This document shows, piece by piece, positions 4,641 to 54,744 of a stretch of DNA of 64,000 bases. A model generated the notes under the pieces. It was not told where the DNA came from. It did no database searches and worked only from the letters and a program-made list of their open reading frames with translations. Position numbers and translations under genes: made by a program. The stretch comes from Isurus oxyrinchus (Eukaryota), in the NCBI GenBank assembly GCA_026770705.1, contig JANJGN010000071.1, positions 1,860,001 through 1,924,000 of the forward strand. The letters are read 5' to 3'. The stretch's first letter is position 1, and every line of letters begins with the position of its first letter.

Positions 4641-4674
4641 TTGATGTTCAGTCCCCTCCCTTGTTGCCTTTCAG

Positions 4675-4963
4675 GAGTGATGTCAGAGGGATAGTCTATG
4701 AAGGCGCTGCCTCGGAGGGCCATCAGCAGCTCTTGTGTGGTTATTCCGTGTAGCTTTGACTTTCCTTCCCACTCTTACACAGCACTGCACGGAGCTTGGT
4801 ATAAATATTGGTATAGATGGAAATATACCATCACATACACCAAAGATCCCAATTATGGGGTGGACACATTCGTGGGACGTGCTAAAATAATCGGCGACTT
4901 GGAAGGGAAGAATTGTTCGGTGAGGATTGACAGTCTCAGAGCTGAAGACAGTGACGTGTATTG
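4675..4963 (+). pseudogene. Siglec-like gene A, V-set Ig exon (pseudogenised)
   Basis: Acceptor ttcag|GA in phase 1; reads GVMSEG*SMK..SSCVVIPCSFDFP..HGAWYK..GRAKIIGDLEGKNCSVRIDSLRAEDSDVY; TAG at 4692-4694; truncated in the F strand by Gypsy sequence. Confidence 0.85.
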
Positions 4964-14221: not shown

Positions 14222-14470
14222 GGTAAACAGAACGTGCTGATTACTGAGCCCCGGAACACAACCAGAGACACAACTAGTGAGGGGGAGACCCCAGCTCCCC
14301 GGGGTCTCTCTGAAGGTGCATCGGGAGGCGATGCTGGACATTGGCACATCGACAATCCCAACGGCCTTCTCTACGCCAATCCCCAAGTATTGAGGATGTC
14401 CAGTGATGATGGGTCTGTCCACAGGGAAGAGGAGACGGAATACGCACAGATCAGGTTCGAGCATAACTGA
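14222..14470 (+). pseudogene. Orphan Siglec terminal cytoplasmic exon (LLYANP..TEYAQI)
   Basis: Acceptor tgtag|GGT, 249-nt open frame to TGA, paralogous to 35416-35664; no TM exon upstream. Confidence 0.8.
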
Positions 14471-14667
14471 ATGAGAAATGGGGAGTGGGAGTGAGGAGGT
14501 GTGGGGGTGGGGGTAGTGATTGAGATTCCTGGGAACAGGAAACAACCCACTGGGGGAGAGGGGGAGAGAGGGAGGAAGGGATGCGATTGGGCTGCGGTTG
14601 GTGTGGTTTGGAATGAAATGCTTCTCCAGAGAGGACTGGATGCTGAGCCACTGGGGATAGAGATTCA

Positions 14668-14708
<41 letters not shown>

Positions 14709-15059
14709 TCTTTGTCTTTCTTTCTGTGTCTGTCACTCATTCTCTATCTCCAGCTCCTCCTTTAAGATGCCCGTTAATAACTGACTTTGTTGACTCAGCT
14801 GTTGGTCTCCTGTCCCTTATATCTCCTCATGTGCCTCAGAGTCAGGTGAAGATGTGACTAACAATTCCCGGATGAGCCTTGGGACATTTTGCTACATTAA
14901 AGCTCCTATATAAATGCAAGTAGTTGCAGTAAGTCTGATCTGCTTCGATTAACAATGGAACCACAAAGGCTCCTTCGACAGGGCGTGTGTGCAGGAGGAT
15001 CCCAATAAATACATTGAGCTGTGAGATTTTTAATTCTTACATCGAATGTGGCTGTCACT

Positions 15060-15490
15060 GGTGATGCCAGCATTAATGCCCATCCCTAATTGCCCTTGAG
15101 AAGGTGGTGGTGATCAGCCTTCTTGACCCGCTGCAGTCCATGTGGTGTAGGTACACCCACAGTGCTGTTAGGGAGGGAGTTCCAGGATTTTGACCCAGTG
15201 ACAGTGAAGGAACGATGATATATTTCCAAGTCAGGATGGTGAGTGGCTTGGAGGGGAACTTCCAGGTGGTGGTGTTCCCATGTGTCTGCTGCCCTTGTCC
15301 ATCTAGATGGTAGAGGTCGTGGGTTTGGAAGGTGCTGTTGAAGGAGCCTTGCTGAGTTGCTGCAGTGCATCTTGTAGATGGTACACACACTGCTGCCACT
15401 GTGTGTTCGTGGTGGAGGGAGTGAATGTTTAATGTGGTGGATGGGGTGTAGATCAATCGGGCTGCTTTGTCCTGGATGGTGTCAAGCTTC
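15060..15490 (-). mobile_element. LINE 3' fragment
   Basis: Minus-strand 'DTIQDKAARL..HSLHH..TVAAVC..YKMHCS'; duplicate at 57440-57880. Confidence 0.7.
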
Positions 15491-15627
15491 TTGATTCTGT
15501 GCTTTGTATAGAACTGATTTAAAGAGACAGTCCCAGTCGTTGGTCTAAGATTACAGTGGGCTCTGTGTCTGTGCTACACTGACTCTCTGCTATATGATAA
15601 CCACAGTGTGATATTTTGTTATTTCAG

Positions 15628-15709
15628 GAGAAAGACAGCGATGGAGGAGAGAGTTTCAGGGACCAGTGACATTGTATTGACCCCCAGTCCACTCTCTGTG
15701 AAGCACCAG
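15628..15709 (+). pseudogene. Orphan Siglec juxtamembrane cytoplasmic exon (RKTAMEERVSGTSDIVLTPSPLSVKHQ)
   Basis: 82-nt phase 2/0 exon, paralogous to 34295-34376 and 58018-58099; no TM exon upstream. Confidence 0.8.
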
Positions 15710-15844
15710 GTACAGGAGCTGTTTACACTCACTCCAAAGCTTCTATCTCAGTGTGTAGACAACACATGTCCCAGATTCCCAGCCCAGTTACCCACTGATT
15801 TGTACCTGTGGAGTCAGCAATGGTTCAGTATCATGCTGTCTCTC

Positions 15845-16605
15845 TGTTATGACACAGCAACTGGTAAAGGCTGTTGTTTAAAATCCCAGAGGGAAACTTT
15901 AAACAACTGTCATAACCTATATTTCCCAGTGGAATGTTTGAGATGCAGCTCTAAATTCAGGAATAAGACCATCAGTTCTTGAGATGGGTTTATATCAAAC
16001 TACATGAGACATTTATTAATTTTCACAAGTTGATCATATGCACATGGCTACAAGCTAGTACTATCATAACTTTTTAACAAATTCCCAAACTAACGTCCTC
16101 TAAGACAACCCATAGACTTTAAGCAGATTCCAAGCGAAGCATTTTCACCTCACAAATTCCAAATGAGGTTCCTTTCACTTTGGTTCCTTTGCAGACAGGT
16201 GTAGGCTTACAGCTGCTTTGATGTTACAAGCCTCTGCTCTGCACACACACATACTGCTCAAGTTATACCCAGCTCTTCTCTTTGAATGTAAATTCTCATT
16301 GTATCATCAGGACCTTTGATCTCCATCTCTTCTAACTATAAATCCCGTTTCATAGTATCAATTTTATTAGTAATATAAACATTGATTGGTTTAAGAATTC
16401 ACTCCCAGGCTTTGAATCCTCCTTTTAAAAATGCAATATGCCTCTTTACCTCTTTGTTTACATCTCAAAACTACTATACATAAAAGTACCCAGACCGGCT
16501 GTCTTTAATCCAATTAAAACACACACACACACACCCACAGACTAAACCTCTGTTTAAAAAGACAATTTCCAATTACAATACATACATTAATAGATTCATA
16601 ACGCT
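15845..16605. mobile_element. Solo-LTR-like element (family also at 20214-21031, 58236-58968, 62150-62979; inverted copies at 35956-36850 and ending at 40540)
   Basis: Begins tgttatgac and ends ..tcataac; shared 5' block 'ggtaaaggctg..aaatcccagagggaaa..aaacaactgtcataac'. Confidence 0.55.
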
Positions 16606-16732
16606 CAGTCTCTGACCCTTCATCTCTCTCTCTCTCTCTCATCCTCTCTCTGATTACAAGATTCATGTTATTGAGCCTCACACCAGGCACCTGAGTGCAG
16701 AATCCAAGCCGACACTCGCCAGAGCCATTACC

Positions 16733-17012
16733 GAGGGAGTGCGAGACTGACAGAGGGTCAGTACTGAGGGAGTGCTGCACTGTCAGAGGGTCAGTACTGA
16801 GGGAGTGTTGCACTGTCAGAGGGTCAGTACTGAGGAAGACCTGTACTGTCGGAGGGTCAGTACTGAGGGAGCGCTGCACTGCTGGAGGGTCAGTACTGAG
16901 GGAGCGCTGCACTGTCGGAGGGTCAGTACTGAGGGAGTGCTGCACTGTTGGATGGTCAGCATTGAGGAAGTGCTGCACTATCGAAGGGTCAGTACTGAGG
17001 GAGCACTGCACT
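16733..17012. repeat. 29-bp minisatellite
   Basis: Tandem copies upstream of a tail exon. Confidence 0.9.
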
Positions 17013-17158
17013 GCCATAGGTGTTTTCTTTCATAAGACATGTGAGAGAGGGTTAAACCCACTGACCCACGACTGACACTAACGAGGCTGCAGAATATTTT
17101 AACCCTATCAGTGCCAGTAAATGATGTGAGGATGTCTTCTGTTTCCATTTCTCTGTAG

Positions 17159-17407
17159 GGTAAACAGAACGTGCTGATTACTGAGCCCCGGAACACAACC
17201 AGAGACACAACTAGCGAGGGGGAGACCCCAGCTCCCCGGGGTGTCTCTGAATGTGCAGTGGGAGGCGATGCTGGACATGGGAACCCCGACAATCCCGACG
17301 AGTTTCTCTACGCCAATCCCCAAGTCTTCAGGGTGCCCAGTGGTGATGGGTCTGTCCACAGGGAAGAGCAGACGGAATACGCACAGATCAGATTCAAGAG
17401 AAACTGA
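17159..17407 (+). pseudogene. Orphan Siglec terminal cytoplasmic exon (FLYANP..TEYAQI)
   Basis: 249-nt open exon, acceptor ctctgtag|GGT, nearly identical to 59314-59562. Confidence 0.8.
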
Positions 17408-18539: not shown

Positions 18540-21440
18540 TATAAAATATAAAGTTGGAACAAATGAATGAAGTTATAGCACAAATAGAGATTAATGGGTA
18601 CGATAAGATGGACACTGCAGAGAGTTGGTTGCAAAGTGACCAAGGTTGGAAATTGAAAATTGAAGGATATTTGGAATCTTTGAAAGGATAGGAAAAATGA
18701 AAAGGAGGTGGGGTAGCTCTCTTAATAAAAGATGAGACCTGTAAAGTAGTGAGAAATGATTTTGGCTCAGATGTCAAGATGCACAGTCAGTTTGGGTGAA
18801 CATAAGGAATTGCAAGGGAAAGAAATCACTGGTGGGTTGGTTTATACTCCCCCCTGAATGTAGTTACACTGCAGGGGTAGATTATAAATCAATACATGAG
18901 GAGGTTTATGAGAAAGGCACCACATTAATCATGGGAGTTTTCAATCGTCATATGGATTAGCCAAATCAGATTAGCAAATGTAGCTTTCAGCGAGGTTATA
19001 CAGATTGTATTCAGGACAGTATTTTAGAACAATCCAACATGGAACCAACCAGGGAAGAGGCTGTTTTAGTCCTGGCAATGTTTAATGAGACAAGACTAAT
19101 TAACATCTCATTGTAAAGGACCCTCAAGGGAAGAGTAATCATACGGTGTTGAAATTTAATATTCAGTTTAGAAACTTGGGTCTTAAGCTAGTGTCATAAA
19201 CTTAACTAAAGGCAATTACAAGGGTTAAAAGTAGAGTCGGCCCAAGTAGAGTGGGACAGCAGGTTAAAGGGGGGTGGGTAGGTGAAGAGTAATAGGCATC
19301 TAAAGAGATGTTTCATAAATTCCAATGAAGATATTTTCCAGTAAGAAAGAAAGAATCTATAAAAAGGATGGAGCATCGGTGGCTAACTCAGGAAGCTAAG
19401 GACGGTATCAAATTGTGAGATAAAGCCGGCAATGTTGGGATGCTTAGTGATAGGCTGGAGATTGGGAATATTTGAGAAACCAGAAAAGTGAGGGGAGAAA
19501 TATAAGGAGGCAGAAATGATGATATGAGAGTAAACTAGCAAGAACCATAAACAATGACAGTGAGATGTTGTACATTAAAATAAGAGAGAAGCTACAGTAA
19601 TAATGGGACACATAGAAAATCAGACTGGGGAATTAATAATGGGAAACAGGAAATGACAGAGACTTTCAACAAGAATTTTGTGTCTGTCTTCACAGTAAAA
19701 ATCTCTAAAACCATCCCAATCGCAGGAGAAAGTCACGGTGCAACAAGGAGGGAGGAACATAAAACAATCACTATCACCAGAGAAAAAGTATTAAGAAAAC
19801 TAATGAGACAGATGCTGACAAGTCCCATGGAGCAGACGGCCTGAATGTGAGGGTCTGAAAGGAAATGGCTGCAGAGACAGTGGATGCATTGGTTGTAATC
19901 TTCCAGAATTCCTTAGAATATGGGAAGGTCCCAGCGGATTGGAAAAACATAAATAAAACACTTCTGTTCAATAAAGGGAGGAGGCAGAAAGCAAGAAACT
20001 ACAGGTCAGTTAGTCTAACATCTGTCATTGGGAAAATACCAGCATTCATTATGAAGGAGGGAGCAGCAAGACATTTAGAAAACCATAATTCAATCAGACA
20101 GAGTCAACATGGGTTTGTGAAAGGGATATCATGTTTGAAAAAATAATTAGATTTCCTCGAGGATGGAACAAGTGGATTGGATAAAGGGGAACCTGTAGAT
20201 GTGGTGTATTAGGGACTATGACACAGCCAAGGGTAAAGGCTGAGTTGTTCAAATCCCAGAGGGAAAATTGAAACAAATGTCATAACCCAATTTTGCTGTT
20301 TGTAATTTCGAGATGAAGACTTTGAATTCAGTAGGAATAAGACCACCGAGGATTGTGGGTTTTTTATATAAAACTAAATAAACCATTTATTAATTTAACA
20401 CATACACATTGGCTACAAATAACTACTATAATAACTTTTTAACAAATCCCCCAATTAATCACCCCCATGAAAATCTCTACTAAGGCAACAATGAACCATT
20501 GACATAATATAGACACCAGGCAAAGCACATTTGACATTACGAATTCCGAATGAGGTTCCTTTGCTAGTTGGTTGGAGGCTACAGGCTGGTTAGGTCTGAA
20601 ATGCTCCTGCCTCACACACACAAACTCCTTCCTTTATATAACTAGCTTTCCCTTTGAATGTAAATTTTCCATTGTATCACTCGGACTTCTGAACTCCAGC
20701 TCGTCGAACAATAAAACCCCCTTTCATAGCACCAATTTCATTAGTAAGTTCAAGAAAAAACACATCTTTTGGCTCCTTCTAACTAGGTGCAAGATTTTAC
20801 CCCCAGTCTGGAATGGTTTATTCAACAATTGCAAATGAACACTTTACTGTTCTCCTCACAATTCACCTAATTAACATCTCAAAACTACTAAACATCAAAG
20901 CACACAGACCAGCTGGCTTTAATCCAATTAAGACACACCCAGACTCACACCTATACATGGACCACCACTAGAATTCTATTTTAAATAATAATTTCCAAGC
21001 ACATTTTACACACAAATATCTCTTCATGACATTGGATTTCCAAAAGGCATTCGATAAGGTGCCACATCAAAGGACAATGCACAGGGTGAAATTGGATGGT
21101 GTTGGGGGGTATATATTAATACGGATAGAGGACTGGCTAACTGACAGGAAACAGAGAGCCAGGATAAATGGGTGATTTTCAGCTTGGTAAACTGTAACTA
21201 GTGGAGAGCCACAGGGATCAGTGCTGAGGCCTCAACTATTCACAATCTACATTAGTGACGTGGATGAAGAGACTGACTGTACTGTAGGCAGATTTTCTGA
21301 CTGTATGGTGAAGATAGGTAGGAAATATATAAGCTGTGCAGGAAAGCAAGTTGTGAGGAGGACACAAAGAGGCTGCAGAGGGAGATAAATAGTTTCAGTG
21401 AGTAGATAAAAAAATGAGTGGATGGAATACAAGGAATGAA
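18540..21440 (+). mobile_element. Decayed CR1 LINE ORF2 (endonuclease + RT), interrupted by an LTR-like insert
   Basis: Motifs NYRSVSLTSVIGK, QHGFVKG, VDVVY|LDFQKAFDKVPH (split at 20210/21032), GEPQGSVL; many stops. Partial duplicate at 61434-63380. Confidence 0.85.
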
Positions 21441-21544
21441 AATGTCAGGGTGTCCAGCTGATCCTACTTGTTCTGGTCTTATATTCTTATACAGACACAG
21501 GGTTTGCTGACAGTGCACAGCTAAGTGCTGTTCACTCACTTTGT

Positions 21545-21688
21545 TCCAACTTCCTCATTTTGGCTCACAGTGACACATCAGCCTTTTCTAATTTAATACA
21601 CAGATGGATCAGCACAGGATGAGGTCATTCAGCCCAAGCAGAGCGTGTGGGCAGTTCCTCCCCAGGCGAGCAGTCGGACAGGTCCTGG
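21545..21688 (+). promoter_or_regulatory. Putative TATA-less promoter and non-coding exon 1 of Siglec gene B
   Basis: PU.1-type box (reverse strand aaatgaggaagt, 21549-21560), second GAGGAA box at ~21655, strong donor CTGG|gtaagt at 21689; conserved in the gene D copy. Confidence 0.5.
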
Positions 21689-22120
21689 GTAAGTAACGGA
21701 ACGATTGGAATTCACTTCCACCACCAACACCGTCCTTTGTTGATGTTGTGACTTTATAAAGACAGATTCCAATGATCGATGCCTTTGAAAGATTTCTACT
21801 GATTATTGAGATCTGGGTGTGAGGCTCAAGTCTGTTGTACAGAACATCTTTCTAGCTCAAGGGACATGAGCTTGGGGACATCCAAGGTGGTGAAAGGTGC
21901 TATAGAAATGCAAGACCTTCATTGTTTTTCTTTCTGAAAGCCTTGTAACTCTCTGCAGAGCACCTATCATCCCACAGAGAATCAAATTAGTCTGTGAAGA
22001 TATTGTCTAAAAGCAGTTCTGATCTCTCAAGAGCATTCGTACAAGAGGTGAAGTCTCATTAACTCCTTTCTCTTTCAGAACTTCAGAGTTAGAAGCTGAG
22101 GAAATATCTGGGAGTGGACC

Positions 22121-22160
22121 ATGATCGGGAAATCTTTCTTCCTCCTGTCACTTCTGCAAG
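22121..22160 (+). CDS. Siglec-like gene B, signal-peptide exon (MIGKSFFLLSLLQ-V)
   Basis: Acceptor at 22078, 'gaccATGa' start, phase-1 donor CAAG|gtaa; joins in frame to the V exon. Confidence 0.85.
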
Positions 22161-25100
22161 GTAATACCATTGTCAGCTCGGACAGATTTATGGTTAATAG
22201 TCTTTGTTAAAGATCATTCTTATTGAGCTCTGATAGGGAACTGATTCAGCAGTGATCCAGTGTACAAACTCACACCAAGTCCCATTCACCCATCACCCCT
22301 GTGCTCACTGATGTACACTGACTCCCTGTCTGACAGCAGAATTGGAGTAGACCAGTGGTCTTGAAGGGTTGTAGGGGCTGGAGGAGTTTACAGGGATAGG
22401 CAGGTTTGTAGCAGCGAGAGCAGAATCTTGAAATTCAGGTGCTGTCGGACGTTGGTCAGTGAGCGATGGGGATTGATGTGTTGAGTAGAGAAGCAGGGAT
22501 AAAAACTGGGGGATGAAGCCTATCCTAATGTTAGGTCTCCGATAGCAATGACCTGAAATTTGTGTCCTTTGCTGCCTTTATTCAAAACTTCCCATGAAGA
22601 CAACACAGCAGCTCCTAGAATAGACAGGTTGTTCAGTGTCACACTTCCTGTCCATTCTCACCTTGCTAGATACTTCAATAAGAGAGCAAGATAACTGAAA
22701 GAGAGAAGAAAGGCAAAGCCGACTGGGTGTAAAGGTGTCAAATATTCTGAGTTATCTGATGAGTGTCTCTGATCTGCTGCATAGTTTAAATTTCACGGAA
22801 TCTGGGCACGTTGCAGCTCAGAGAGAGACCATTGCCTCACTGCCTGAAAGAGCGGTGGAAGCAGATTCAACAGGAACTTTCAGAAGGGGAACTGGATAAA
22901 TACTTGAAGGGAAATTTGCAGGAATGTGCGAAAGGTGTTGGAGAGGAATTGGGAAAGAGTCAGCACATGCACGATGAGTCACATGAGCTCCTCCTGTGTT
23001 GTATCAATCAACAATCAGACAATTTAAGACCCTTATCAGCAAATCTTCAGAATCCTGTTGAATCACAGATGTTTCAGAAGGACAGGGAACAAGAGGTTTC
23101 TGGTATCAACACTTCATGTGGGGCCCAGTTCAGTTTGAACAAAAAAAATGACAACAGCATCTTTGAAAGTCATGAAACCAACACAACGGCAACTCCGACA
23201 CATGCAGAGCTCAGGCTAGAGGCACTTTGTTAGTGTGTTTCACAGTCTCTGCTGGAGTAGGGTCAGTGCTGAGCTTGGGGACAAGTCAGTCTACAATGCT
23301 GCATCGGAATCAACAATACAACAATATGGGGTTTGGATCAGAAATAATCCATTAGACAATGAGGATCCAAAGAGATTCCTTCGACAATGAGGATCCGAAG
23401 AGATTCCTTAGACAATGAGAATCCAAAGAGATTCCTTATTCCATTGGTTGTCTAACTGGGGTCCATGATTTTCCAAGGGGTCCTTGGCAGAATCAAATTA
23501 TCGAGCAATAGTGTGTAAAACACCGGAGAGAACGGGAAAGGTGGGATCAATGGAAAACTGTTCACTCTGTTTACACTAATGGGAGTTAGTCTCAGTAATG
23601 GAGACCATGAAACTATCATCGATTGTCATACACACCCATCTGGTTCACTAATGGCCTTTAGGGAAGGAAATCTGCCGTCTATATCTGGTCTGGCCTCCAT
23701 GTGACTCCAGACTCATAGCAACGTGGTTCCTCTGAAATGTCCGAGCAAACCATCCAGTTCTCACCATGCTAGAAACTTCAATAAGGGAGTAAGATAACTG
23801 AAAGAGAGAAGGAAGGCAAAGCTGCTCATGTGGATAGATGTCAAATATCCTGAGTGATCATGATTGTCTCTACTCTGCTACAGAGATTATGTCACGGGAC
23901 ATTAGAGATGGGCAGCAAATGCTGGCCTTGGCAGCGACGCCCACATCCCATGAATGAATACATTTACAAAATCTTATTAATTGGAGGGATAAAAGGGTTA
24001 AAGAGTTGCTGATGGAGGAACAGACACCCAATTTTTTTCGTAATTTACAGTTAGGAACCAATAATATTTTGTTTCAAGTAGACGAGGTTTGAGATTTAAG
24101 ATGCTTGCCAAGAGAATAAAGCTACAAGATTCCATGGCTTTTAAACAAATAAAAATAAACGTTACTGCACCAGCTCAGAAAGATAAAATAATTCACAATA
24201 TCCACCTTATACCCTAACATTCTGGATTAATATGAGCTCATGTGAATTAACAGGCAAACTGTGGTCTCACAGCCACATTACTCATTAAATTGTAAACGCG
24301 ACCAAGATAGAGCCCATGGATTTCACAACAACCCACCCGGACATCAGTGAACACTGTCAGTCAACCAATCTCACTGAAACTCTGTTTCTCTCATGAGGGA
24401 TTCCAATCTTCAACTTCAAAGATCTTGCCTTGGAATTCTCTCCAAAAGTCGCTTCAACTCGGATGGCCTCAGTGACGTTCCACCTCACAGCGTTTCCATC
24501 TCTTCTCCTGAGGCTCCATTGCCCTGGATTCCCGACTATATACTCAAGTACCACTAGGTTTAGATGAAAGGTTTTGATTGACTGGGTAGACAGAGAATGT
24601 TCCCTCTTGTGGGCAGGAGAATAACTAGAGGACGAGTGATTGGTGATTCCTTAAACATTGAAGAGGGAATGAACACCAATCAGATTGAATCAGATTAGCC
24701 AATCAGCTGTGTTGAAGAGCAGACAGGAATGTTAGGCTAATTAGTGATTCATGACGGTGATAATGGGGGGAGTTCTGAGTGGAAGACTGGCTTCACTAAG
24801 GGGAAGCGGTAGCAGAGAGGTATTGTCACTGGGCTAGTATTCCAGAGGCCCCGGGTGATGCTCTGGGGCCCTGGGTGTGAATCCCATCACAGCTGATGAA
24901 TGGAATTAAAAAGCCTGGTTCACTGATCACCTATAGGGAAGGAAATCTGCCACCCTTACCCAGTCTGGCCTACATGTCACTCCAAACCCAAAGCAATGTG
25001 GTTGACTCTTAAATGCCTCTGCTGGACATGGGATGGGTAATAAATCCCATGAATGAATAATTCGAAAAAACTAAACAGGGTCCTGAGGACCATGAGCCAA

Positions 25101-25291
25101 TGTAGAATGAACTTGTCCACTCCTGTGTCCAGGATTCTCTTCCAACCATTGTGAAACCTTGGGGAGTTCCTTGTGTGTCCTGTAGATGGTCCACACTGCA
25201 GCCACTGTGCCCCAATGATGGAGGGAGTGGATATCAAGTCTAATGGAACTACAAACCGTCCAGAATTAAATATTGATATTTCTCTCCCCAG

Positions 25292-25657
25292 TTGGATGGT
25301 CACAAGAGTGGAAAGGTGACACTCCACGAGAGATGACAGCACAGAAAGGTTCGTGTGTACAGATTCCGTGTCATTACAGTTATCCTTCAAATTTGGAAAA
25401 CCAACAACGAGGTGGAGTCTGGTTTAATAATGAGGAACGGGGAAGATCGTCTATAGCCTTTCACTCCAAGGATCACAATCATGAGTTACCACGGTTCCGC
25501 CATCGGACCCAGCTGTCTGGAGACCTGAAAGATGGCGACTGTTCCCTGATTATAAACAACATCAGACGGGAAGATGCAGGACCTTATTTTTTCAGAATAG
25601 AATTTGACAGCAGGAATAGATACAGCTACTATCCTGTAACCCAGCTTCACGTTTCTG
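25292..25657 (+). CDS. Siglec-like gene B, V-set sialic-acid-binding-type domain
   Basis: 366-nt phase 1/1 exon; GSCVQIPC (two Cys), GVWF, GDCSL, DAGPYFFRIE with the F-strand Arg at 25594-25596, G-strand YSY. Confidence 0.92.
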
Positions 25658-26028
25658 GTAAGTGCTGTGTTATAATTACTCAAAAATTCACATTCAACAC
25701 TCAATGGGAAACAACACAAACTGTGACGTTTACATATTAACACAAAACACAGCTTATTATAACACACTGTCTGATTCTCAATAACCTGGTGATGGCTTCC
25801 AGTTCAGTCCTAACGTAACCTTTAATACTCACTTTAATATCAATGATTAAATGTATTCCACTCCCATCGATCTCTCTAATCGTGTCTAACAGTCTATCAG
25901 GATAGTTAAAACAACTCAGTTCTGATATCATCCTTGTAAAAGTGCTTTCTCTTGTGGGACTGTGATTTCTATTTGAACTGATGCTTCACGTTATATTTCT
26001 CTAAAAGGATCCATTCTCTGTGTGTTAG

Positions 26029-26325
26029 ATTTCACAGATAAACCCACAATATTCCCTGCTGAAATTATTGCAGGAAAGCGTGTGGATGTAAGCTGCACCT
26101 TCAACACAACGTGCAATGGAACAGCAGCACCTGTCTTAACCTGGGACACTCCCACTGACGTACCTGGATCAGTCTCAAACACTGTAACTCAGCATGGTGT
26201 CACTCTGACCTATACTTCTGTTCTGACCCTGATCCCATCACTCAAACACCACGGACACACTCTCAGCTGCAGAGTGAGATATCCATCTGTTTCATCGGAG
26301 CGGACCCTCGTACTAACTGTGCAAG
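26029..26325 (+). CDS. Siglec-like gene B, domain 2 (C-type Ig)
   Basis: 297-nt phase 1/1 exon; SCTFNTTC (extra Cys for the D1-D2 disulfide), LTW, SVLTLIP..HG..LSCRV. Confidence 0.92.
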
Positions 26326-26449
26326 GTAAGTACCGACTCCCTTCCATCTACATTAGCTAGAAAGCTCCACATAGTACACTGCAAGATCCCACAACTGCAT
26401 TGTGTTTAGCAACAAATCAATAGTCTTTAATTGATACAAATTCACCTCT

Positions 26450-26905
26450 GACACTGCAGCAGTCCCTGAATACTGACTCTCCAACACTGCAGCATTCCCT
26501 CACTACTGACCCTTCGACAGTGCAGCACCCCCTCAGTACTGAATCTTCGCAGTGCAGCACTCCCTCAGTACTGACCCTCTGAGAGTGCAGCACCCCCTCA
26601 GTTCTGACCCTCAAACAGTGCAGCACCCCCTCTTTACTGACCATCTGACAGTGCAGCACTCCCTCAGTACTGACCCACTGACAGTGCAGCACTCCCTCAG
26701 TACTGACCCTCTGACAGTGCAGCACTCCCTCAGTACTGACACACTGACAATGCAGCACTCCCTCAGTACTGACCGTCTGACACTACAGCACTCCCTCAGT
26801 ACTGACCCTCTGACAGTGCAGTACTCCCTCAGTACTGACACACTGACAGTGCAGCACTCCCTCAGTACTGACCCTCTGTCATTGCAGCACTCCCTCAATA
26901 CTGAA
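26450..26905. repeat. 29-bp minisatellite (intronic)
   Basis: About 15 tandem copies. Confidence 0.95.
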
Positions 26906-27036
26906 CTGATTTGTCTGCCTGGATTACGGGCTTTGTGGTGAAAGAACCTGCATTGATATCAAACCTTTCACATTCTCAGTGTCTTTCAAAGTGCTTCACA
27001 GTCAGTTTAAGTTAATTGATGTTTATTTGTTTTTAG

Positions 27037-27318
27037 ATGCACCACAGAATCTCTCAATTAATTCTCTTGATATGATTAACGCTTCATCGATCAACATAAT
27101 TGAGGGGAATTCTGCAGTGATAATCTGCTCTGTCGAGAGCTTCCCAGCTTCTAACCTGACGTGGCGACATCTTAATGTCCCAATGAACAGAACAAGTTCC
27201 AACAATGAGCTGTGGTTGGTGATTCCTCACGTTACATCCAGGGACACTGGAGACTATCAGTGTGTGGCAGAGAATGAACATGGAGCAGTGGAGGGGTTCA
27301 TAACCATCACTGTGGAAC
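27037..27318 (+). CDS. Gene B C2-set Ig exon 1 of 6
   Basis: 282 nt, phase 1/1; EGNSAVIICSVESFPASNLTW..DTGDYQCVAENEHG. Confidence 0.9.
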
Positions 27319-27356
27319 GTGAGTTACTGCAAACTTCAACATCACTCACACACACA

Positions 27357-27392
<36 letters not shown>

Positions 27393-27991
27393 GACACACA
27401 TGCAGAAGGACACACAACCTTAACTCACACACACACACACGCACAGACAGACACACGTGCGCACACACACAAACACACATGCGTGCATGCACACACAGAT
27501 CCTTGTTGTGCAGAAACATACACACACACAAGCCAACACACACATACACACACAAAAACGTGTGGGTACCCTCTCCTCTCTCAGTGCTGCACTGGAGTCT
27601 CGGTATCAGCTCCGATTCTTTGTTGATGGAAGGTAAAGTCCAGATCAACAAGACCCTGAACTGGATGAGCAACCTCCTGAACAGTGAATTGTAGATTTAC
27701 CCCTCAGTTCTCCATCGATCAAATACAATTCATTGCCTTTGAAGCCCTTGGCGACATCCTGAGGATCTGAAAGGGAGTTTCCTGCATTCTAGATAGACAC
27801 CTCCACTGGTGGGAGAATGTAACTGCAGTGTGACAGTTTACATAGGCAGTGCCCGTTGTAAATGTGAAATAAGTTCTTATCCTGAGGGAAGGTACCTGGA
27901 AATGCATTCAGACATCAGATACAGAGACATGATGCATGGAGTCTTGCTGTGCACTATATTTGCTCATATTAAAATCTTTATATGTTTTTAG

Positions 27992-28273
27992 ATGGACCAC
28001 AGAATCTCTCAATTACTTATCTTGATATGATTAACGCTTCATCGATCAATATAATTGAGGGGAATTCTGCAGTGATAATCTGCTCTGTCGAGAGCTTCCC
28101 AGCTTCTAACCTGACGTGGCGACATCTTAATGTCCCAATGAACAGAACAAGTTGCAACAATGAGCTGTGGTTGGTGATTCCTCACGTTACATCCAGGGAC
28201 ACTGGAGACTATCAGTGTGTGGCAGAGAATGAACATGGAGCAGTGGAGGGGTTCATAACCATCACTGTGGAAT
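27992..28273 (+). CDS. Gene B C2-set Ig exon 2 of 6
   Basis: 282 nt, intact ag/gt; extra Cys (RTSCNN). Confidence 0.9.
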
Positions 28274-28890
28274 GTGAGTGTTCACAAACTACAGCATCTC
28301 ACACACACACACACACACACACATACATGCACATGCACTGACAGACACACGTGCGCACACACACACAAACACACATGCATGCGTGCACACACACAGATCC
28401 TTATTGTGCAGAAACATACACACACACAAGCCAACACACACATACACAGACAAAAACGTGTGGGTACCCTCTCCTCTCTCAGTGCTGCACTGGAGTCTCG
28501 GTATCAGCTCTGATTCTGTGTTGAAGGAAGGTGAACTCCAGATCAACAAGACCCTGAACTGGATGGAGCAACCTCCTGAACAGAGAAATGTATATTTACC
28601 CCTCAGTGCTCCATCGATCAAACACAATTCATTGCCTTTGAAGCCCTTGGGGACATCCTGAGGATCTGAAAGGGAGTTTCCTGCATTCTAGATGGACACC
28701 TCCACTGGTGGGAGAATGTAACTGCAGTGTGACAGTTTACATAGGCAGTGCCCATTGTAAATGTGAAATAAGTTCTTATCCTGAGGGAAGGAACCTGGAA
28801 ATGCATTCAGACATCAGATACAGAGAGATGATGCATGGAGTCTTGCTGTGCACTGTGCTTGCTCACATTAAAATCTTTATATGTTTTTAG

Positions 28891-29172
28891 ATGCACCACA
28901 GAATCTCTCATTTACTTCTCTTGATATGATTAACGCTTCAACGATCAATATAATTGAGGGGAATTCTGCAGTGATAATCTGCTCTGTCGAGAGCTTCCCA
29001 GCTTCTAACCTGATGTGGCGACATCTTAATGTCCCAATGAACAGAACAAGTTCCAACAATGAGCTGTGGTTGGTGATTCCTCACGTTACATCCAGGGACA
29101 CTGGAGACTATCAGTGTGTGGCAGAGAATGAACATGGAGCAGTGGAGGGATTCATAACCATCACTGTGGAAC
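28891..29172 (+). CDS. Gene B C2-set Ig exon 3 of 6
   Basis: 282 nt, intact ag/gt, open frame. Confidence 0.9.
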
Positions 29173-30397
29173 GTGAGTTNNNNNNNNNNNNNNNNNNNNN
29201 NNNNNNNNNNNNNNNNNNNNNNNNNNNNNNNNNNNNNNNNNNNNNNNNNNNNNNNNNNNNNNNNNNNNNNNNNNNNNNNNNNNNNNNNNNNNNNNNNNNN
29301 NNNNNNNNNNNNNNNNNNNNNNNNNNNNNNNNNNNNNNNNNNNNNNNNNNNNNNNNNNNNNNNNNNNNNNNNNNNNNNNNNNNNNNNNNNNNNNNNNNNN
29401 NNNNNNNNNNNNNNNNNNNNNNNNNNNNNNNNNNNNNNNNNNNNNNNNNNNNNNNNNNNNNNNNNNNNNNNNNNNAGACACAGGTGCACACAAACAAGCA
29501 TTCATGTGCAATCCCACATGTGCACAGGTGTGTACGCCTGCATGCTCACACACACAGAAGGAAACATACACAGAATCACACGTGTGCTTGCTCACACACA
29601 CACAGACATGTGTGAGTTGTCTGTTCTCCCTGTGCTGCACTGGAGTGTTGCTCCAGATTCTGCTCTGAAACACTGACGACATCAGCTGAACAAGACCCTG
29701 TATTGGACGAGCAGCCTCCTGCACAGAGAATTGTAGGTTTATCACTCAATACCCCATTATTCTAAAGCAATTCCTCCACTGTCAAATCCCTGTGAATATC
29801 CTGATGATGTGAAAGGCATTTTCTTTTCTTCTAGCCGGACAGTGTCTCCTCTGGTGGAAGGCTGTAATTACAGCGTGACAGTTTACATATCCACACGCAG
29901 CAAGAGCTGAGCAACACTCAGCTTGGGCTGAGAAATGACAATTAATGTTCACACCACACAAGCACCAGGCAGTGATCATCACCAACAAGAGAGAATCTAA
30001 CCATCTCCCCTTGATGTTCAGTGAGTTTACTATCACTGAATCCCCCACGATCAACATCCTGGGGGGTGTTACCCAAACAACTAACTGGACCGGCCATAAA
30101 TACTGTGGCTACAGGAGCCGGTCAGAGGCTGGGAATTCTGTGGGGGTGAAAAACTCACCACCACCTCCTCAAGGGCAATTAGGGATGGGTGATAAATGCT
30201 GGTCTAGATAGATACATCCACTTCCCATGAATGTACAAAAAGAAAAACGCTGGCAGTGACCATTATAAAAGTTGACATAGAAACTTAAAACAGGAAAGAA
30301 CCTTGAAATGCACATAGACACCAAATAGAGAGAGATGTATCATGGAGTCTTGCTGTGCACTGTGTTTGCTCACAATGATACCTTTATTTGTATTTAG

Positions 30398-30679
30398 ATG
30401 CACCACGGAACCCATCAATTACTTCTCTTGATATGATTAACGCTTCATCGATCAATATAATTAAGGGGAATTCTGCAGTGATAATCTGCTCTGTCGAGAG
30501 CTTCCCAGCTTCTAACCTGACGTGGCGACATCTTAATGTCCCAATGAACAGAACAAGTTCCAACAATGAGCTGTGGTAGGTGATTCCTCACGTTACATCC
30601 AGGGACACTGGAGACTATCAGTGTGTGGCAGAGAATGAACATGGAGCAGTGGAGGGATTCATAACCATCACTGTGGAAT
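30398..30679 (+). pseudogene. Gene B C2-set Ig exon 4 of 6, with an in-frame stop
   Basis: 282 nt, splice sites intact; TTG>TAG at 30577-30579 relative to the five sister exons. Confidence 0.88.
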
Positions 30680-30715
30680 GTGAGTTACTGCAAACTTCAA
30701 CATCACTCAGACACA

Positions 30716-30756
<41 letters not shown>

Positions 30757-31486
30757 GGACACGCACACACACACACTCACACACACACACACGTGTGTAA
30801 GCATACACATGCATAATTATATACACACATTCATACACGTACAAACACATACACAGGAAAATACACAGCCATCTCAAACACACACACATATTCATGCCCA
30901 AACATAGACACACACATGCACATTCACTCACTCATGGACAGACGTAGACACACAGAAACGCGTGCATGCGCACGCACAGACACATGTGTGCATACACACA
31001 CAAGCACACTCACCTGTGCAGAAACACAAACACACACACACACATACACACATGTGAGTTCCGTGACCTCTCTCAGTGCTGCACTGGAGTCTCAGTGTCA
31101 GCTCCGATTCTGTGTTGAAGGAAGGTAAACTCCAGATCAACAAGACCCTGAATTGGATGAGCAACCTCCTGAACAGAGAAATGTAGATTTGCCCCTCAGT
31201 GCTCCATCGATCAAATACAATTCATTGCCTGTCAAGCCCTTGGCGAAATCCTGAGGATGTGAAAGCGAGCTTCTTTCATTCTAGATGGACAACACCTCTA
31301 CTGGTGGGAGAATGCAACTGCAGTGTGACAGTTTACATAGGCAGTGTCAATTATAAATGTGCCATAACACCTTATCCTGAGGGAAGTTACCTGGAAATGC
31401 ATTCGGACATCAGATACAGAGACATGATGCATGGAGTCTTGCTGTGCACTATATTTGCTCACATTAAAATCTTTATATGTTTTTAG

Positions 31487-31768
31487 ATGCACCACAGGAT
31501 CTCTCAATTACTTCACTTGATATGATTAATGCTTCATGGATCAATATAATTGAGGGGAATTCTGCAGTGATAATCTGCTCTGTCGAGAGCTTCCCAGCTT
31601 CTAACCTGACGTGGCGACATCTTAATGTCCCAATGAACAGAACAAGTTCCAACAATGAGCTGTGGTTGGTGATTCCTCACGTTACATCCAGGGACACTGG
31701 AGACTATCAGTGTGTGGCAGAGAATGAACATGGAGCAGTGGAGGGGTTCATAACCATCACTGTGGAAC
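31487..31768 (+). CDS. Gene B C2-set Ig exon 5 of 6
   Basis: 282 nt, intact ag/gt, open frame. Confidence 0.9.
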
Positions 31769-32224
31769 GTGAGTTACACACACACAAGTGTGAGCTCCCT
31801 CTCCTCTCTCAGTGCTGCACTGGAGTCATGGTATCAGCTCACATTCTGTGCTGAAGGAAGGTAAACTCCAGATCAGCAAGACTCTGAACTGGATGGAGCA
31901 ACCTCCTGAACAGAGAATTGTCGATTTACACCTCAGTGCTCCATCGATCAAATACAATTCATTGCCTGTCAAGCCCTTGGGGACATCTTGAGAGTGTTAA
32001 AGGATGTTTCTTTCATTCTAGAGGCTTAGCAACTCTACTGGTAGGAGAAAGCAACTGCAGTGTGATAGTTTACATAGGAAGTAGTGCCCATTATAAATAC
32101 GACAGTAATTTTTCATGAGGGAAGGTACCTGGAAAAGCATTCCAACATCAGATACAGAGAGATGATGCATGGAGTCTTGCTGTGCACTATGCTTGCTCAC
32201 ATTAAAATCTTTCTATGTTTTTAG

Positions 32225-32506
32225 ATGCACCACAGGATCTCTCAATTAATTCACTTGATATGATTAACGCTTCATCGATCAATATAATTGAGGGGAATTC
32301 TGCAGTGATAATCTGCTCTGTCGAGAGCTTCCCAGCTTCTAACCTGACGTGGCGACATCTTAATGTCCCAATGAACAGAACAAGTTCCAACAATGAGCTG
32401 TGGTTGGTGATTCCTCACGTTACATCCAGGGACACTGGAGACTATCAGTGTGTGGCAGAGAATGAACATGGAGCAGTGGAGGGGTTCATAACCATCACTG
32501 TGGAAC
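32225..32506 (+). CDS. Gene B C2-set Ig exon 6 of 6
   Basis: 282 nt, intact ag/gt, open frame. Confidence 0.9.
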
Positions 32507-32509
32507 GTG

Positions 32510-32775
32510 AGTGTGGAGATACATTTGTTTGGTTGTTGTCTCCGTGGTCTCTGTGGAGCCATTGGGATCGTGTTGTTTTTAATCCAGTTTTCTTCAATCC
32601 TCGCTCAGTCCACGTTATCCACACATCCAATTTTTCCTCTCCCTTTCTGTTTTTGCTCTCAGTTTCTCCTTCAATGGTTGTGAGGACAAGGCTGTCAGGT
32701 CTTCGTTTCCAATCTCCGTACTTGACGACCTTTCTCTCTCTAACTGTCCTGAACAACCCTTTTAATTGCTGAACT
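32510..32775 (-). mobile_element. RTE-like LINE 3' fragment (longer copy at 53230-53550)
   Basis: Minus-strand 'MLRISWMDRKTNEWL..VRERKVVKYG.WKRR..TIEGETESKNRKG..W'. Confidence 0.6.
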
Positions 32776-33322
32776 TCTCATTCTTTAATTGATAAATATT
32801 ATATATAAATGTTACATGGATTACTTTGAAATGCAACACCTGTATTCATAAATTGCTTAGAAATTGCTAAACATTCAACAGCCAATGAGCATTATCGAAG
32901 TGAGCTCACTGCTGTAATGTAGGAAACACAGGTACTGATTTGTGCACAGCAAGATCCCGCAAACCACCGTGTGATAATGACCTGATATTCGATTATTTCA
33001 GTGAGGTTGGTTGTTACATGTGTAGACAATACATACCCTTTAGGGAGGGAAGCATGTCTCGATGTGGATGTGACTCCAGTCTCAAACACCAACATGGTTA
33101 ACTCACACCTGCCCTCTGAACTGGTCTCCCAGTTTGGGACAAGCCAGTGGTTCAGGAGGAAGACCACCCACCACCTTCTCAAGGGGAAACTAGGGATGGA
33201 CAATAAATGTCAGCATTGCCCGAGAATGAGTATTTAAACACTGAGTGAGTGTATCGCTTCTCGAGATACATCGGAGCATCATTGTAAACCTGTAGTGCAG
33301 TAATTAATGGCTGTTTTTACAG

Positions 33323-33419
33323 GTAGAGACTCCAGTAAATGGACAGTAGGATTGTTCACGGCTGGGATCATGTTGAGTGTTTTCCTGGCTGGAATCTTCA
33401 TCTTCATCTGTGTGAGAAA
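33323..33419 (+). CDS. Gene B transmembrane exon (RDSSKWTVGLFTAGIMLSVFLAGIFIFICVRK)
   Basis: 97 nt, phase 1/2; acceptor ttttacag, donor AA|gtaagt; ~24 uncharged residues followed by RK. Not in the ORF track. Confidence 0.9.
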
Positions 33420-34294
33420 GTAAGTGTGAAGATTTAAATTGATTTTAATATAAACATTTGCTTCAATGTTCTTTCCTCAAGTCGGTGATTGTTTCCCTTG
33501 GGATTAGCACCAGGTCCCTCTCTGTAAGTGGTCCCTGTGTCCACTGTGATCCAGAGAGAACCTTTCATTGTCCTGTATCCAGGTAAACAATCACGAGACC
33601 CAGAGATTCCTCACTCTGCACGATTACTCCTGGATAAACATTTGCTTCAAAGTTCTTTCCTGAAGTCGGTGATTGTTTCCCTTGTGTTAAGCGCCAGATG
33701 CCTCTCCGTAACTGGTCTCTTTATCCGTTATGATCCAGAGAGTGTTTTTCATTGCCCGTTATCCAGATGAATAATAATCAGTTGTTGTGATCTGGAAGGT
33801 GCTGCCTGAAAGGGCGGTGGAAGCAGATTCAATAGGAACTTTCAAAAGGGTAAATGGATAAATATTTGAAGGGGGAACATTTGAAGGGCTATGGGGGGAA
33901 GAGCAGGGGTGGAGGGGATCAAAGATATGGCGTGTTATTATAATGATATTATACCTTAGGCTTATTTACTGTACAAGAAACAAAGCACCAATCACTCACA
34001 GGGATTGGGTGAGAATGTTATGGGCTCGTTAATCAAGACTCAGCACGAGAACAGTTATACATACGGATAAAGCTTGGAGGCATCAGAGCTGTGTGTGTGT
34101 GCTCTGCTCAAAGCAAAAGTGAAACTAAGATTGGATCAAATGACACACTTCTATTATAGTGATATCACGCTGATATCCCTTAATGCAACTAGAGACAGTC
34201 CAGTTGTTGGTTTAAGTTTACAGTGGGCTCTGTGTCTGTGCTGCACTGACTCTCTGCTATATGATAACCACAGTGTGATATTGTGTTATTGCAG

Positions 34295-34376
34295 GAGAAA
34301 GACAGCGATGGAGGAGAGAGTTTCAGGGACCAGTGACATTGCATTGACCCCCAGTCCACTCTCTGTGAAGCACCAG
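34295..34376 (+). CDS. Gene B juxtamembrane cytoplasmic exon
   Basis: 82 nt, phase 2/0; RKTAMEERVSGTSDIALTPSPLSVKHQ. Confidence 0.88.
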
Positions 34377-34582
34377 GTACAGGAACTGTTTACACTCACT
34401 CCAAAGCTTCTATCTCAGTGTGTAGACAACACATGTCCCAGATTCCCAACCAGGTTACCCACTCCTGTGGAGTCAGCAATGGTTCAGTAGGTAGCACTGT
34501 CTCTCACTCCCTCCCGCTCTCTCCCTCCATCACTCGCTCTTTGACCAGAAACCTGAACACAGTAATGACAAGGCAACTGATG

Positions 34583-34965
34583 TCAGTACTGAGGGAGTGC
34601 TGCACTGTCATAGGGTCTGTGCTGAGGGAGTGCTGGACAGTCAGAAGGTCAGTACTGAGTGAGTGCTGCACTGTCGGAGGGTCAGTACTGAGGGAGTGTT
34701 GCACTGTCAGAGGGTCAGTACTGAGTGAGTGCTGGACTGTCAGAGGGTCAGTACTGAGGGAGTGCTGCGCTGTCATAGGGTCAGTACTGAGGGAGTGCTG
34801 GACTATCGGAGGGTCAGTACTCAGGGAGTGCTGCACTGTCGGAGGGTCAGTACTGAGCGCAGTACTGAGGGAGTGCTGCACTGTCGAAGAGTCCATTTTC
34901 AAGGGGTGCTGCCCTCTTGAAGGGGCAGGTCCCAGGGAGTGCTGCACTGTCAGGAGTCAGCACTG
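34583..34965. repeat. 29-bp minisatellite (last intron of gene B)
   Basis: Tandem copies. Confidence 0.9.
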
Positions 34966-35415
34966 AGAGAACATTGCAGTGTTCGAGGTGCCTCTTTCAG
35001 AATAGTTGTATAATGCTGACCATGTTTACCATCTTATCTGGTCCCATGGCCACATTTCCAACACTGTAGCAGTGTCGCCCTTCAATAAAATTCCTTCATT
35101 GGCGTGAGGTTCTTTGTGTGTCTGTGTTTGTGAATAATGGGGCACAAATCTCATGATTGGGATGGTAACATAGGACTTCAAGACTCAGGTCTGCGATAGC
35201 GAGAGAGATTACATGATAAATAGAGAGAGAAAGCAAGAGAGAGAGAGAGAAAGAGAGACAGAGAAAGAGATTGAAAAATGAGACAGAGAAAGAGAGTGAA
35301 AAAGAGGGTTAAACCCATTGAGACATGACTGACAGTAACGAGGCTGCAGAATAATTTAACCCTATCAGTGCCAGTAAATGATGTGAGGATGTCTTCTGTT
35401 TCTATTTCTCTGTAG

Positions 35416-35664
35416 GGTAAACAGAACGTGCTGATTACTGAGGCCCGGAACACAACCAGAGACACAACTAGTGAGGGGGAGACCCCAACTCCCCGGGGTC
35501 TCTCTGAAGGTCCAGTAGGAGGCGATGTTGGACATGGGAACTCAGACAAACCCGACGAGCTTCTCTACGCCAACATCAACTTTTCAAAGCTGCCCGGCGG
35601 TGACAGGACTGTGCACAGGAGCGAGGACACGGAATACGCACAGATCAGGTTCCAGAAAAACTGA
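35416..35664 (+). CDS. Gene B terminal exon with ITIM (LLYANI) and ITSM/ITIM-like motif (TEYAQI)
   Basis: Phase-0 acceptor, 82 codons plus TGA; motifs at 35560-35577 and 35629-35646. Confidence 0.92.
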   Translation, partial: GKQNVLITEARNTTRDTTSEGETPTPRGLSEGPVGGDVGHGNSDKPDELLYANINFSKLPGGDRTVHRSEDTEYAQIRFQKN

Positions 35665-51484: not shown

Positions 51485-51853
51485 TTGGACTGTCACAAGA
51501 GTGGAAAGGTGACACTCCACGAGAGGTGACAGCGCAGGAAGGTTCGTGTGTACAGATTCCATGTCATTACAGTTATCCATCGTGTCTGGAAAACCAACCG
51601 CGAGGTGGAGTCTGGTTTAATAATGAGAAACAGATTCCCTGGGCTCCCATTGCCTTTCACTCCAAGGATCACAGTCACCAGTTACCACGGTTCCACCATC
51701 GGACCCGGCTGTCTGGAGACCTGAAAGATGGCGACTGTTCCCTGATTATAAACAGCATCACACGGGAAGATGCAGGACCTTATTTTTTCAGAATAGAATT
51801 TGACAATGGTCCGAGCCATAACTATTACCCTGTAACCCAGCTTCACGTTTCTG
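51485..51853 (+). CDS. Siglec-like gene C, V-set exon (open; gene probably pseudogenised or rearranged)
   Basis: 369 nt, phase 1/1; YFFRIE Arg at 51790-51792 retained; no cognate leader exon upstream. Confidence 0.85.
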
Positions 51854-52665
51854 GTAAGTGCTGTGTTATAATTACTCAACAATTCACATTCAACACTCAA
51901 TGGGAAATAACACAAACTGTGATGTTTACATATTAACACAAAACACAGTTTATTATAACACACTGTCTGATTCTCAATAACCTGGTGATAGCTTCCAGTT
52001 CATTCCTAAAGCAACCTCTAATACTCACTTTAATATCAATGATTAAATGTATTGACTGTGTCCATCAATGTTTTCGGGATATCCACTCCCACTGATCTCC
52101 CTAACCCTGTTTGACAGTCTTACATATCGACAAAAGAATGATTCACATTTCTTTAGCACCTTTCACCACCTCTGTCGGTCGCAAATGGATTCACAACCAA
52201 TGAAATAATTCCTGAAATGTCACCCTTGTTGTAATATGGGAAACACAGCAGCCAATTTGTGCACAGGAAGCTCCCAGAAACAGCAATGTGATCAATAACC
52301 TTATCACCTGCTTTAGATGCCGTTTCAGTGATTGGTTCAAATGGATTCTCTCCTGCTGGGAACAGGATAGAATTTAAATTGGCAGATTTCGGAGAAAGTA
52401 ACAAGCCAGTGTGTCAGGAACTGTGAGCTGCTCCCCCACCCTCACCTGGGATTGTCAATTCAATTGTCTCAAAGTGGAAGTGAATTCATCTGAGTGACAG
52501 AAACTCCACTAAGTCTGAAAATAGGAAATTCTCTCCTGATCATTGTAATCTCTCAGTTCTGATATCATCCTTGTAAAAGTGCTTTCTCTTGTGGGACTGT
52601 GGTTTCTATTTGAACTGATGCTTCACGTTATATTTCTCTAAAAGGATCCATTCTCTGTCTGTTAG

Positions 52666-52962
52666 ATTTCACAGATAAACCCACGATATTCCCTGCTGAA
52701 ATTATTGCAGGAAAGTGTGTGGATGTAAGCTGCACCTTCAACACAACGTGCAATGGAACAGCAGCACCTGTCTTAACCTGGGTCACTCCCACTGACGTAC
52801 CTGGATCAGTCTCAAACACTGTAACTCAGCATGATGTCACTCTGACCTATACTTCTGTTCTGACCCTGATCCCATCACTCAAACACCACGGACACACTCT
52901 CAGCTGCAGAGTGAGATATCCATCTGTTTCATCGGAGCGGACCCTTGTACTGACTGTGCAAT
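52666..52962 (+). CDS. Gene C domain 2 exon
   Basis: 297 nt, open, 3 amino-acid differences from gene B D2. Confidence 0.85.
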
Positions 52963-53160
52963 GTAAGTATGAACACCCTTCATTCTATATTAGCTGTAAT
53001 AGGATACATTGTGCAGAGCAAAATCCCACAAACTTCACTGGGTTGAAGACAAAACTGGTCCTTTTTTAATGAGTGATATTGACCAGGGAGAGCTCTTCCT
53101 TGTATTGACCCTTGGGATTGTTTATCCCAACCTGATAGGGCAGAGGGGGCCCAGGTTGTA

Positions 53161-53225
53161 ACTATCAGTGTGTGGCAGAGAATGAACATGGAGCAGTGGA
53201 GGGATTCATAACCATCACTGTGGAA
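53161..53225 (+). pseudogene. 3' remnant of a C2 exon (YQCVAENEHGAVEGFITITVE)
   Basis: Only the last 65 nt and the donor remain; the 5' part and acceptor are deleted. Confidence 0.85.
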
Positions 53226-54600: not shown

Positions 54601-54744
54601 ATGGTGGTCAGATTTTGTCCGAAGGAGGTGAGAAATGAGGGAGGGAATTCCAGAGGTTAGGATCCAGGCAGCTGAAGGCACGGCCGCCAATGGTGGAGCG
54701 ATAGGAATCGGGAGAAGGTCAAGAGGCTGGAATTGGAGGTGCAC

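Follow-up and report, generated by a model that had tools for sequence, protein, structure and literature searches.

The stretch of DNA analysed here, referred to below as the window, comprises 64,000 nucleotides (nt) of Isurus oxyrinchus (assembly GCA_026770705.1, contig JANJGN010000071.1, positions 1,860,001 to 1,924,000 of the forward strand) and carries on its + strand a Siglec-like receptor gene whose stalk is built from six nearly identical copies of one immunoglobulin (Ig) exon. Placed by motif and Pfam matches, the gene is a member of a cluster of about two hundred Siglec-like genes in which the stalk consists of this single exon in 0-12 copies, and it is itself probably broken. It has 12 coding exons, all of them bounded by AG..GT. 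The coordinates below are those of the window; C71 is the label of a contig in the genome listings and C52 that of a second one.

22121..22160, +, signal-peptide exon; ATG at 22121, joint to the V exon present in RNA-like contigs of the family
25292..25657, +, V-set exon; Pfam V-set and Ig_CD22; YxFR with Arg115; Cys35, Cys40 and Cys97
26029..26325, +, first C2-set exon, single copy, of another type than the repeat; Pfam C2-set_2; Cys158, Cys164 and Cys216
27037..27318, +, stalk repeat copy 1; differs by 1 nt from the first unit in two sister genes with 12 copies
27992..28273, +, stalk repeat copy 2; from repeat comparison, collinear with sister genes
28891..29172, +, stalk repeat copy 3; from repeat comparison, collinear with sister genes
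30398..30679, +, stalk repeat copy 4; splice sites intact, carries an in-frame stop
30577..30579, +, in-frame TAG at codon 577, from the spliced-frame translation
31487..31768, +, stalk repeat copy 5; from repeat comparison, collinear with sister genes
32225..32506, +, stalk repeat copy 6; Pfam Ig_3 / I-set; downstream intron matches the last unit of sisters with 11-12 copies
33323..33419, +, transmembrane (TM) exon; span without charged residue; its 30-mer has 194 exact genome matches
34295..34376, +, cytoplasmic linker exon, from the exon model and the RNA-like family contigs
35416..35664, +, last exon, with ITIM-like LLYANI and ITSM TEYAQI, following the motif definitions of PMC13358205

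A first-pass annotation had described this gene as an eight-Ig inhibitory Siglec of 940 codons, and most of its structural detail agrees with the present model. The signal, V, first C2, TM and linker exons are present together with the exon bearing the immunoreceptor tyrosine-based inhibitory and switch motifs (ITIM and ITSM), giving an architecture of the inhibitory Siglec type. The six stalk exons, starting at 27037, 27992, 28891, 30398, 31487 and 32225, are each 282 nt long, of phase 1/1 and bounded by AG..GT; the intron+exon units, put earlier at ~0.7-1.5 kb, measure 738-1507 nt from start to start; and the copies differ by few changes, as had been claimed (3-12 nt in pairwise comparison, 95.7-98.9% identity). 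The 3-4 N-glycosylation sequons ascribed to each stalk exon were likewise counted (4, 4, 3, 3, 3 and 3 in copies 1-6, 20 in sum). The spliced length of 2823 nt does correspond to 940 codons plus a stop, but the frame is not open, and the description as an eight-Ig receptor had overlooked the TAG in copy 4. A stretch of N within the intron 3' of copy 3 (29180-29475) is too short, at 296 nt, to hide a further intron+exon unit, because the shortest unit measures 738 nt.

Several features place the receptor among Siglecs. The V exon matches Pfam V-set (E 1.8e-13) and Ig_CD22 (40.1 bits against a cutoff of 27), both above the curated cutoffs, and domain 2 matches C2-set_2 (E 2.2e-9). The best Pfam matches of the stalk repeat are Ig_3 and I-set, and calling it C2 follows Siglec usage, not Pfam. 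The V domain and domain 2 have three cysteines each, none of them in the YxFR strand. Siglecs have an intra-sheet disulfide in the V domain and an inter-domain disulfide between V and C2. Arg115 sits in the YxFR motif and is assigned as the essential Siglec arginine by motif and Pfam, PMC13358205 naming YXFR as the Siglec arginine motif and defining the ITIM and ITSM consensus. TEYAQI fits the ITSM (TxYxxI/V), and LLYANI fits the ITIM consensus of that paper except for Ile instead of Leu/Val at the last position.

A search for homologs of the V exon returned 109 proteins, 107 of them with elasmobranch names and mostly called Siglec, CD33, MAG or CD22, the closest including white shark (89%) and basking shark (88%). 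These names are mixed among Siglec types, and sialic-acid binding of the V domain is predicted. Clustered and fast-changing genes, a trait of CD33-related Siglecs, are seen here as well: the TM matches listed run along the whole of C52 and C71, and 89 intact V exons sampled encode 79 distinct proteins. V exons range from 366 to 396 nt, with the variation in one loop; the motif Arg is retained in 73 of the 89, and the other 16 lack it or the motif. Amino-acid divergence is 18.6% in the V domain and 3.2% in the next domain. An open frame from signal to tail, as a functional inhibitory receptor would have, is interrupted in this gene by the TAG at codon 577 and is obtained only without copy 4.

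Genome-wide, exact matches number 881 for a 31-mer taken from the repeat exon (thus at least 881 exon copies) and 194 for the TM-exon 30-mer, totals that include fragments and possibly both haplotypes. Genes were sampled from among the matches listed (the first 100 for each of the two probes), as 60 gene-centred pieces of 20 kb around TM matches (32 on C71, 28 on C52) together with 200 kb beside the window, a sample biased towards genes with the exact TM 30-mer. It yielded 68 TM-anchored genes, of which the 52 with V and first C2 exon in view were counted and the other 16 excluded. The stalk repeat is absent from 19 of these 52 genes and present once in 7, twice in 6, five times in 1, six times in 3, seven times in 7, eight, nine and ten times in 2 each, eleven times in 1 and twelve times in 2; no gene has three or four. 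Two or more V exons (2-4 in tandem) occur in 29 of the 52, for example at C71:2364193 (-), and homolog models of other sharks contain up to 7. In 41 of the 52 no lesion was found in the full-length exons, a check that took in neither the signal exons nor the alternative C2 exon nor any partial repeats.

The earlier proposal that stalk length behaves like an accordion is borne out by three sister genes, the V exons of which differ from that of this gene by 3, 5 and 5 nt and which carry 12, 11 and 12 repeats, compared with six here and 0-12 in the family. When the array was tiled on these sisters, intron tiles fell on units 1-5, mostly at 97-100%, and for the last intron the match was the sisters' final unit, whereas exon tiles fitted several sister units at 99-100%. 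This collinearity, combined with near-identical V exons, indicates a recent change in unit number between the sisters. Stalk copies have likely been gained and lost by unequal crossover: misalignment of intron+exon units of ~1 kb would add or remove copies without shifting the frame, since all these exons are 282 nt long and of phase 1/1. CA-rich microsatellite tracts of variable length follow each repeat exon in the introns (window 27343-31775), and in the shortest unit (738 nt, from copy 5 to copy 6) most of the tract is gone; such tracts may favour misalignment between units.

The same comparison bears on the claim that the six copies expanded very recently, which did not hold. That they arose inside this gene alone, or are haplotigs stacked by the assembler, is hardly credible. 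Copies 5 and 6 are indeed nearest or tied-nearest to each other (3 nt), but units 1-5 are collinear with the sisters, mostly at 97-100%, the introns differ between units, and arrays of this exon occur in eight further species, namely seven sharks and a stingray. The nearest exon lies in another gene for four of the six copies, with one tie and one sibling. The introns between units share 79-96% identity over 101-449 aligned nt; four of them are 88-95.5% alike over ~445 nt, and the intron before copy 4 is 79-84% identical to others over 101-143 nt. Stacked haplotigs, the artefact that the first-pass annotation had itself named as a danger, were looked for and rejected on the differing introns, the collinearity with paralogs and the unduplicated last exon, which has no second 100% match among the best 40 of 406 candidates. 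A private recent expansion was rejected on the collinear sisters, the nearest exons in other genes and the arrays of other species.

Near-identity of the stalk exon is a property of the whole family and not of single arrays: repeat exons diverge by 3.87% within genes (624 pairs) and by 3.83% between genes (20286 pairs). Across 207 exons, diversity drops from 0.13 over the initial 30 nt to 0.01-0.04 past nt 60, and 15 of the 20 columns that vary among the six window copies lie in the first 66 nt. Synonymous diversity is 13.6% in codons 1-22 and 2.6% in codons 23-93, with the ratio of nonsynonymous to synonymous polymorphism (pN/pS) at 0.64 in both, a drop that selection on the protein alone does not explain. 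All four gametes occur at 213 of 820 pairs of common sites. These sequence comparisons point to exchange between exon bodies, through either conversion or crossover, and gene conversion likely maintains the near-identity across the family. Exchange would concentrate in the 3' three-quarters of the exon, with the introns and the first 66 nt of the exon staying position-specific.

Arrays of 4-10 copies of the repeat domain occur in 13 of the 109 homologous proteins, from 8 species (seven sharks and one stingray), although 3 of the 13 are isoforms of apparently one catshark gene and adjacent genes are joined in some models. Copies of the stingray array are 95% alike among themselves and 59% alike to those of this gene, and copies of the sevengill array 96% and 68%, each array forming a fully supported clade. 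The window copies intermix with white-shark copies in the repeat tree, on which species labels change 19 times, compared with 60.5 times when shuffled (90 rows and 93 columns, with many unresolved forks). By these sequence relationships, the tendency to array this exon spans sharks and rays, and a shared origin and repeated expansion both fit. Like this gene, the other elasmobranch database proteins combine V, C2, repeat, TM and tail modules with arrays of 4-10 repeats; their names are machine-given, with long-array members scattered under unrelated ones.

Splicing of the family was examined in RNA-like contigs of the runs X15 and X16 (one sample) and X17, in which joints match signal-V, V-C2, C2-repeat, repeat-repeat, repeat-TM and linker-tail, and loose ends match TM-linker. 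The RNA status of these contigs is a tool's guess, and they collapse paralogs and are thus not assignable to a single gene; they support the exon model and transcription at the level of the family, not of this gene.

Taken as a whole, the best reading (probability roughly 0.7) is an old elasmobranch Siglec-like cluster in which stalk length has changed by unequal crossover, the stalk exons have been homogenised by gene conversion, and the present copy has likely been silenced by a stop. Its observed part consists of the copy numbers, the sister collinearity, the equal divergence within and between genes, the lineage-grouped arrays and the family splicing. Several points weigh against it. Recurrent duplication and loss without conversion also yields similar copies, and many members of the sample are recent duplicates of one another. 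Intron type is only weakly linked to the 5' or 3' part of the exon (rho 0.21 and 0.11), which is given no weight as support, and the finding that the nearest neighbour lies in another gene for 176 of 195 exons is inflated because exons of other genes are far more numerous. Values of pN/pS of 0.53-0.64 across exon classes indicate weak constraint, given which stalk length may be drifting, and V classes of the same length show no excess that would signal positive selection (0.54-0.57, length-variable loops unscored). The direction of change, from 6 to 12 or from 12 to 6, is left unpolarised. Carpet-shark copies are partly paired by position across species, and the catshark and whale-shark arrays are only 81-92% alike; homogenisation is incomplete in these groups, and slower in carpet sharks. 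To these are added the mixed content of the genome totals and a null result for the stop in public runs, given below.

The stop itself occupies 30577-30579, a codon that is TTG in each of the remaining five copies, and the fully spliced message ends after codon 576. It is quite likely real. A 27-mer containing the TAG occurs at exactly one other place in the genome, C71:1855451 (-), within the final repeat of a gene fragment that lies 35 kb off in inverted orientation, and these two are the only stops among 207 full-length repeat exons. The two TAG exons are identical over nt 67-281 but differ at 11 positions in nt 10-66 and in both introns, a pattern that fits transfer by conversion; the TAG was perhaps copied in this way between the gene and the inverted fragment. 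An error of assembly or polishing, with an intact eight-Ig receptor of 940 residues beneath it, is a doubtful explanation. Read misplacement would be favoured by near-identical exons, and no TAG-bearing contig was found in four public runs (X2, X11, X15, X6), a search of contigs only. Contigs drop rare variants, a 2-in-881 variant easily, although the stop is thereby left without read support; the identical stop stands in another exon, at a distance of 35 kb, whose 5' end and introns are not those of copy 4; and no sporadic indel occurs in 217 exons, where all 10 frameshifted exons carry one common deletion, which argues for high apparent base accuracy. An intact eight-Ig protein thus probably does not exist.

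The TAG precedes the last junction by 843 nt and, by the exon model, has five exon junctions downstream, so that the full message would be degraded. Only skipping of copy 4, the removal of which in silico gives an open frame of 846 residues, would yield a seven-Ig receptor, and the gene copy is likely either null or the source of such a five-repeat product. A stronger version holds that copy 4 is in fact skipped in frame to give a working inhibitory Siglec of 846 residues, with skipping of repeat exons tuning receptor height within one gene; exon skipping and allelic polymorphism had both been put forward in the first-pass annotation as candidate sources of variable height. We regard the skipping version as unlikely: the frame without copy 4 has no internal stop, the V, C2, TM and tail exons are intact, and RNA-like contigs contain joints that bypass copies, but the AG/GT sites of copy 4 are the same as those of its siblings, and paralogs with fewer copies give the same bypassing joints because the contigs collapse the family. 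Far less likely still is a secreted decoy of 576 residues, comprising V, C2, three repeats and part of the fourth. Its signal peptide and V domain are intact, yet decay is predicted from the five downstream junctions, the last domain would be truncated ahead of its second cysteine, and no alternative last exon was seen, though no search aimed at one was made. Probable silencing by the stop is the reading retained here.

Related elements surround the gene. At window 51485-59562 (+) lies a paralog with V and first C2 exons, only the last 66 nt of the repeat exon, TM and linker exons and a tail of the Pro type; it has a different C2 exon (55439-55732) with an in-frame stop, its signal exon was not found in the window, and it is probably a pseudogene. 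Orphan duplicated tail exons lie 5' of the gene (14222-17407), and the region upstream of the gene (19499-22053) recurs as a 2.6-kb, 96% duplicate at the end of the window (61431-64000), probably the start of the next gene. The V exon at 4668-4961 (+), which is broken and has a stop close to its beginning, belongs to another Siglec/CD22-like type; it shares 65% identity with the N-terminal V in P0032, a protein of the sevengill. Elsewhere, a three-repeat fragment, the middle exon of which has a common 1-nt deletion and which is followed by TM and tail, recurs at ten places on C71 and C52 (for example C71:1856455 (-)), with no V exon within the 17 kb fetched. The gene at C71:1734521-1741548 and nine similar ones form a subfamily, present as copies in many places, with an internal deletion in the first repeat exon and the last cut to its final 66 nt. 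A second type of TM exon, 76% identical, occurs at C71:1783465 (+) and at C71:798611 (-), and appears as a spliced loose end in run X16.

Stalk length and tail type are associated in the sample. Among 20 genes with 5-12 repeats, 17 have the ITIM-like tail, none the Pro-substituted tail, and 3 tails are unresolved or broken; the 32 genes with 0-2 repeats comprise 24 that end in the Pro tail, 3 that end in the ITIM-like one and 5 whose tails are unresolved. The alternative C2 exon is found in 20 of the 32 short genes and in 0 of the 20 long ones. As the genes are related duplicates, this association may reflect two subfamilies and not selected coupling, and Fisher tests of stalk class against tail carry no weight here for that reason. 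Intact sisters would carry the Arg-bearing V domain on 2 to 14 Ig domains above an ITIM/ITSM tail, and receptor height would differ accordingly between paralogs, an Ig domain measuring ~4 nm.

Mammalian CD33-related Siglecs share with this family a V-set domain with a conserved Arg, further Ig domains, a TM segment and a tail with ITIM and ITSM (PMC6288428, PMC13358205, PMC13324755), as well as clustered genes and a V domain that varies more than the domain after it; rapid change of the V domain and pairwise gene conversion are described for them too (PMC6288428). Human Siglecs have 1-16 C2 domains, which hold the V domain off the membrane, with a stalk length given for each (PMC13324755). There are fourteen functional human Siglecs and at least 194 TM-exon matches here, and whereas human stalk length is stated for each Siglec, paralogs with nearly the same V domain differ here by 5-6 near-identical domains. 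SIGLEC11 and SIGLEC16 resemble this family in conversion between close, oppositely oriented Siglec genes, a non-functional donor included, conversion having run from SIGLEC16P to SIGLEC11 (PMC5701461); there, however, the N-terminal V and C2 region of one pair was homogenised, and here a stalk exon in hundreds of copies, while V loops differ. The closest precedent by way of working, not by membership, is the Xenopus XFL (FcR-like) family, with at least 75 genes, one Ig subtype repeated up to 7 times per protein, recombination of exons between genes and many architectures (PMC2413239); it is another receptor family, lacking a V domain of the sialic-acid type. No description of the shark cluster turned up in searches of open literature, most subscription journals excluded, for shark or fish Siglec expansions, and the whale-shark genome paper has one passing mention (PMC8455134).

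This gene, probably broken, matters as a view onto a family that points to a Siglec-like expansion in cartilaginous fish more than 10x the size of the human family. It offers a natural series in which almost the same binding domain stands on 6, 11 and 12 identical modules, and the effect of Siglec height on cis versus trans binding is thereby directly testable. More tentatively, sharks and rays may possess a repertoire of hundreds of Siglecs diversified in height through a single stalk exon, interchangeable and rich in glycosylation sites, which every lineage has homogenised anew since the shark-ray split; in this genome the repertoire would fall into a tall class (5-12 repeats, ITIM-like tail) and a short class (0-2 repeats, mostly Pro-substituted tail). 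If so, height would set whether sialic acids are read in cis or in trans and would be coupled to signalling strength.

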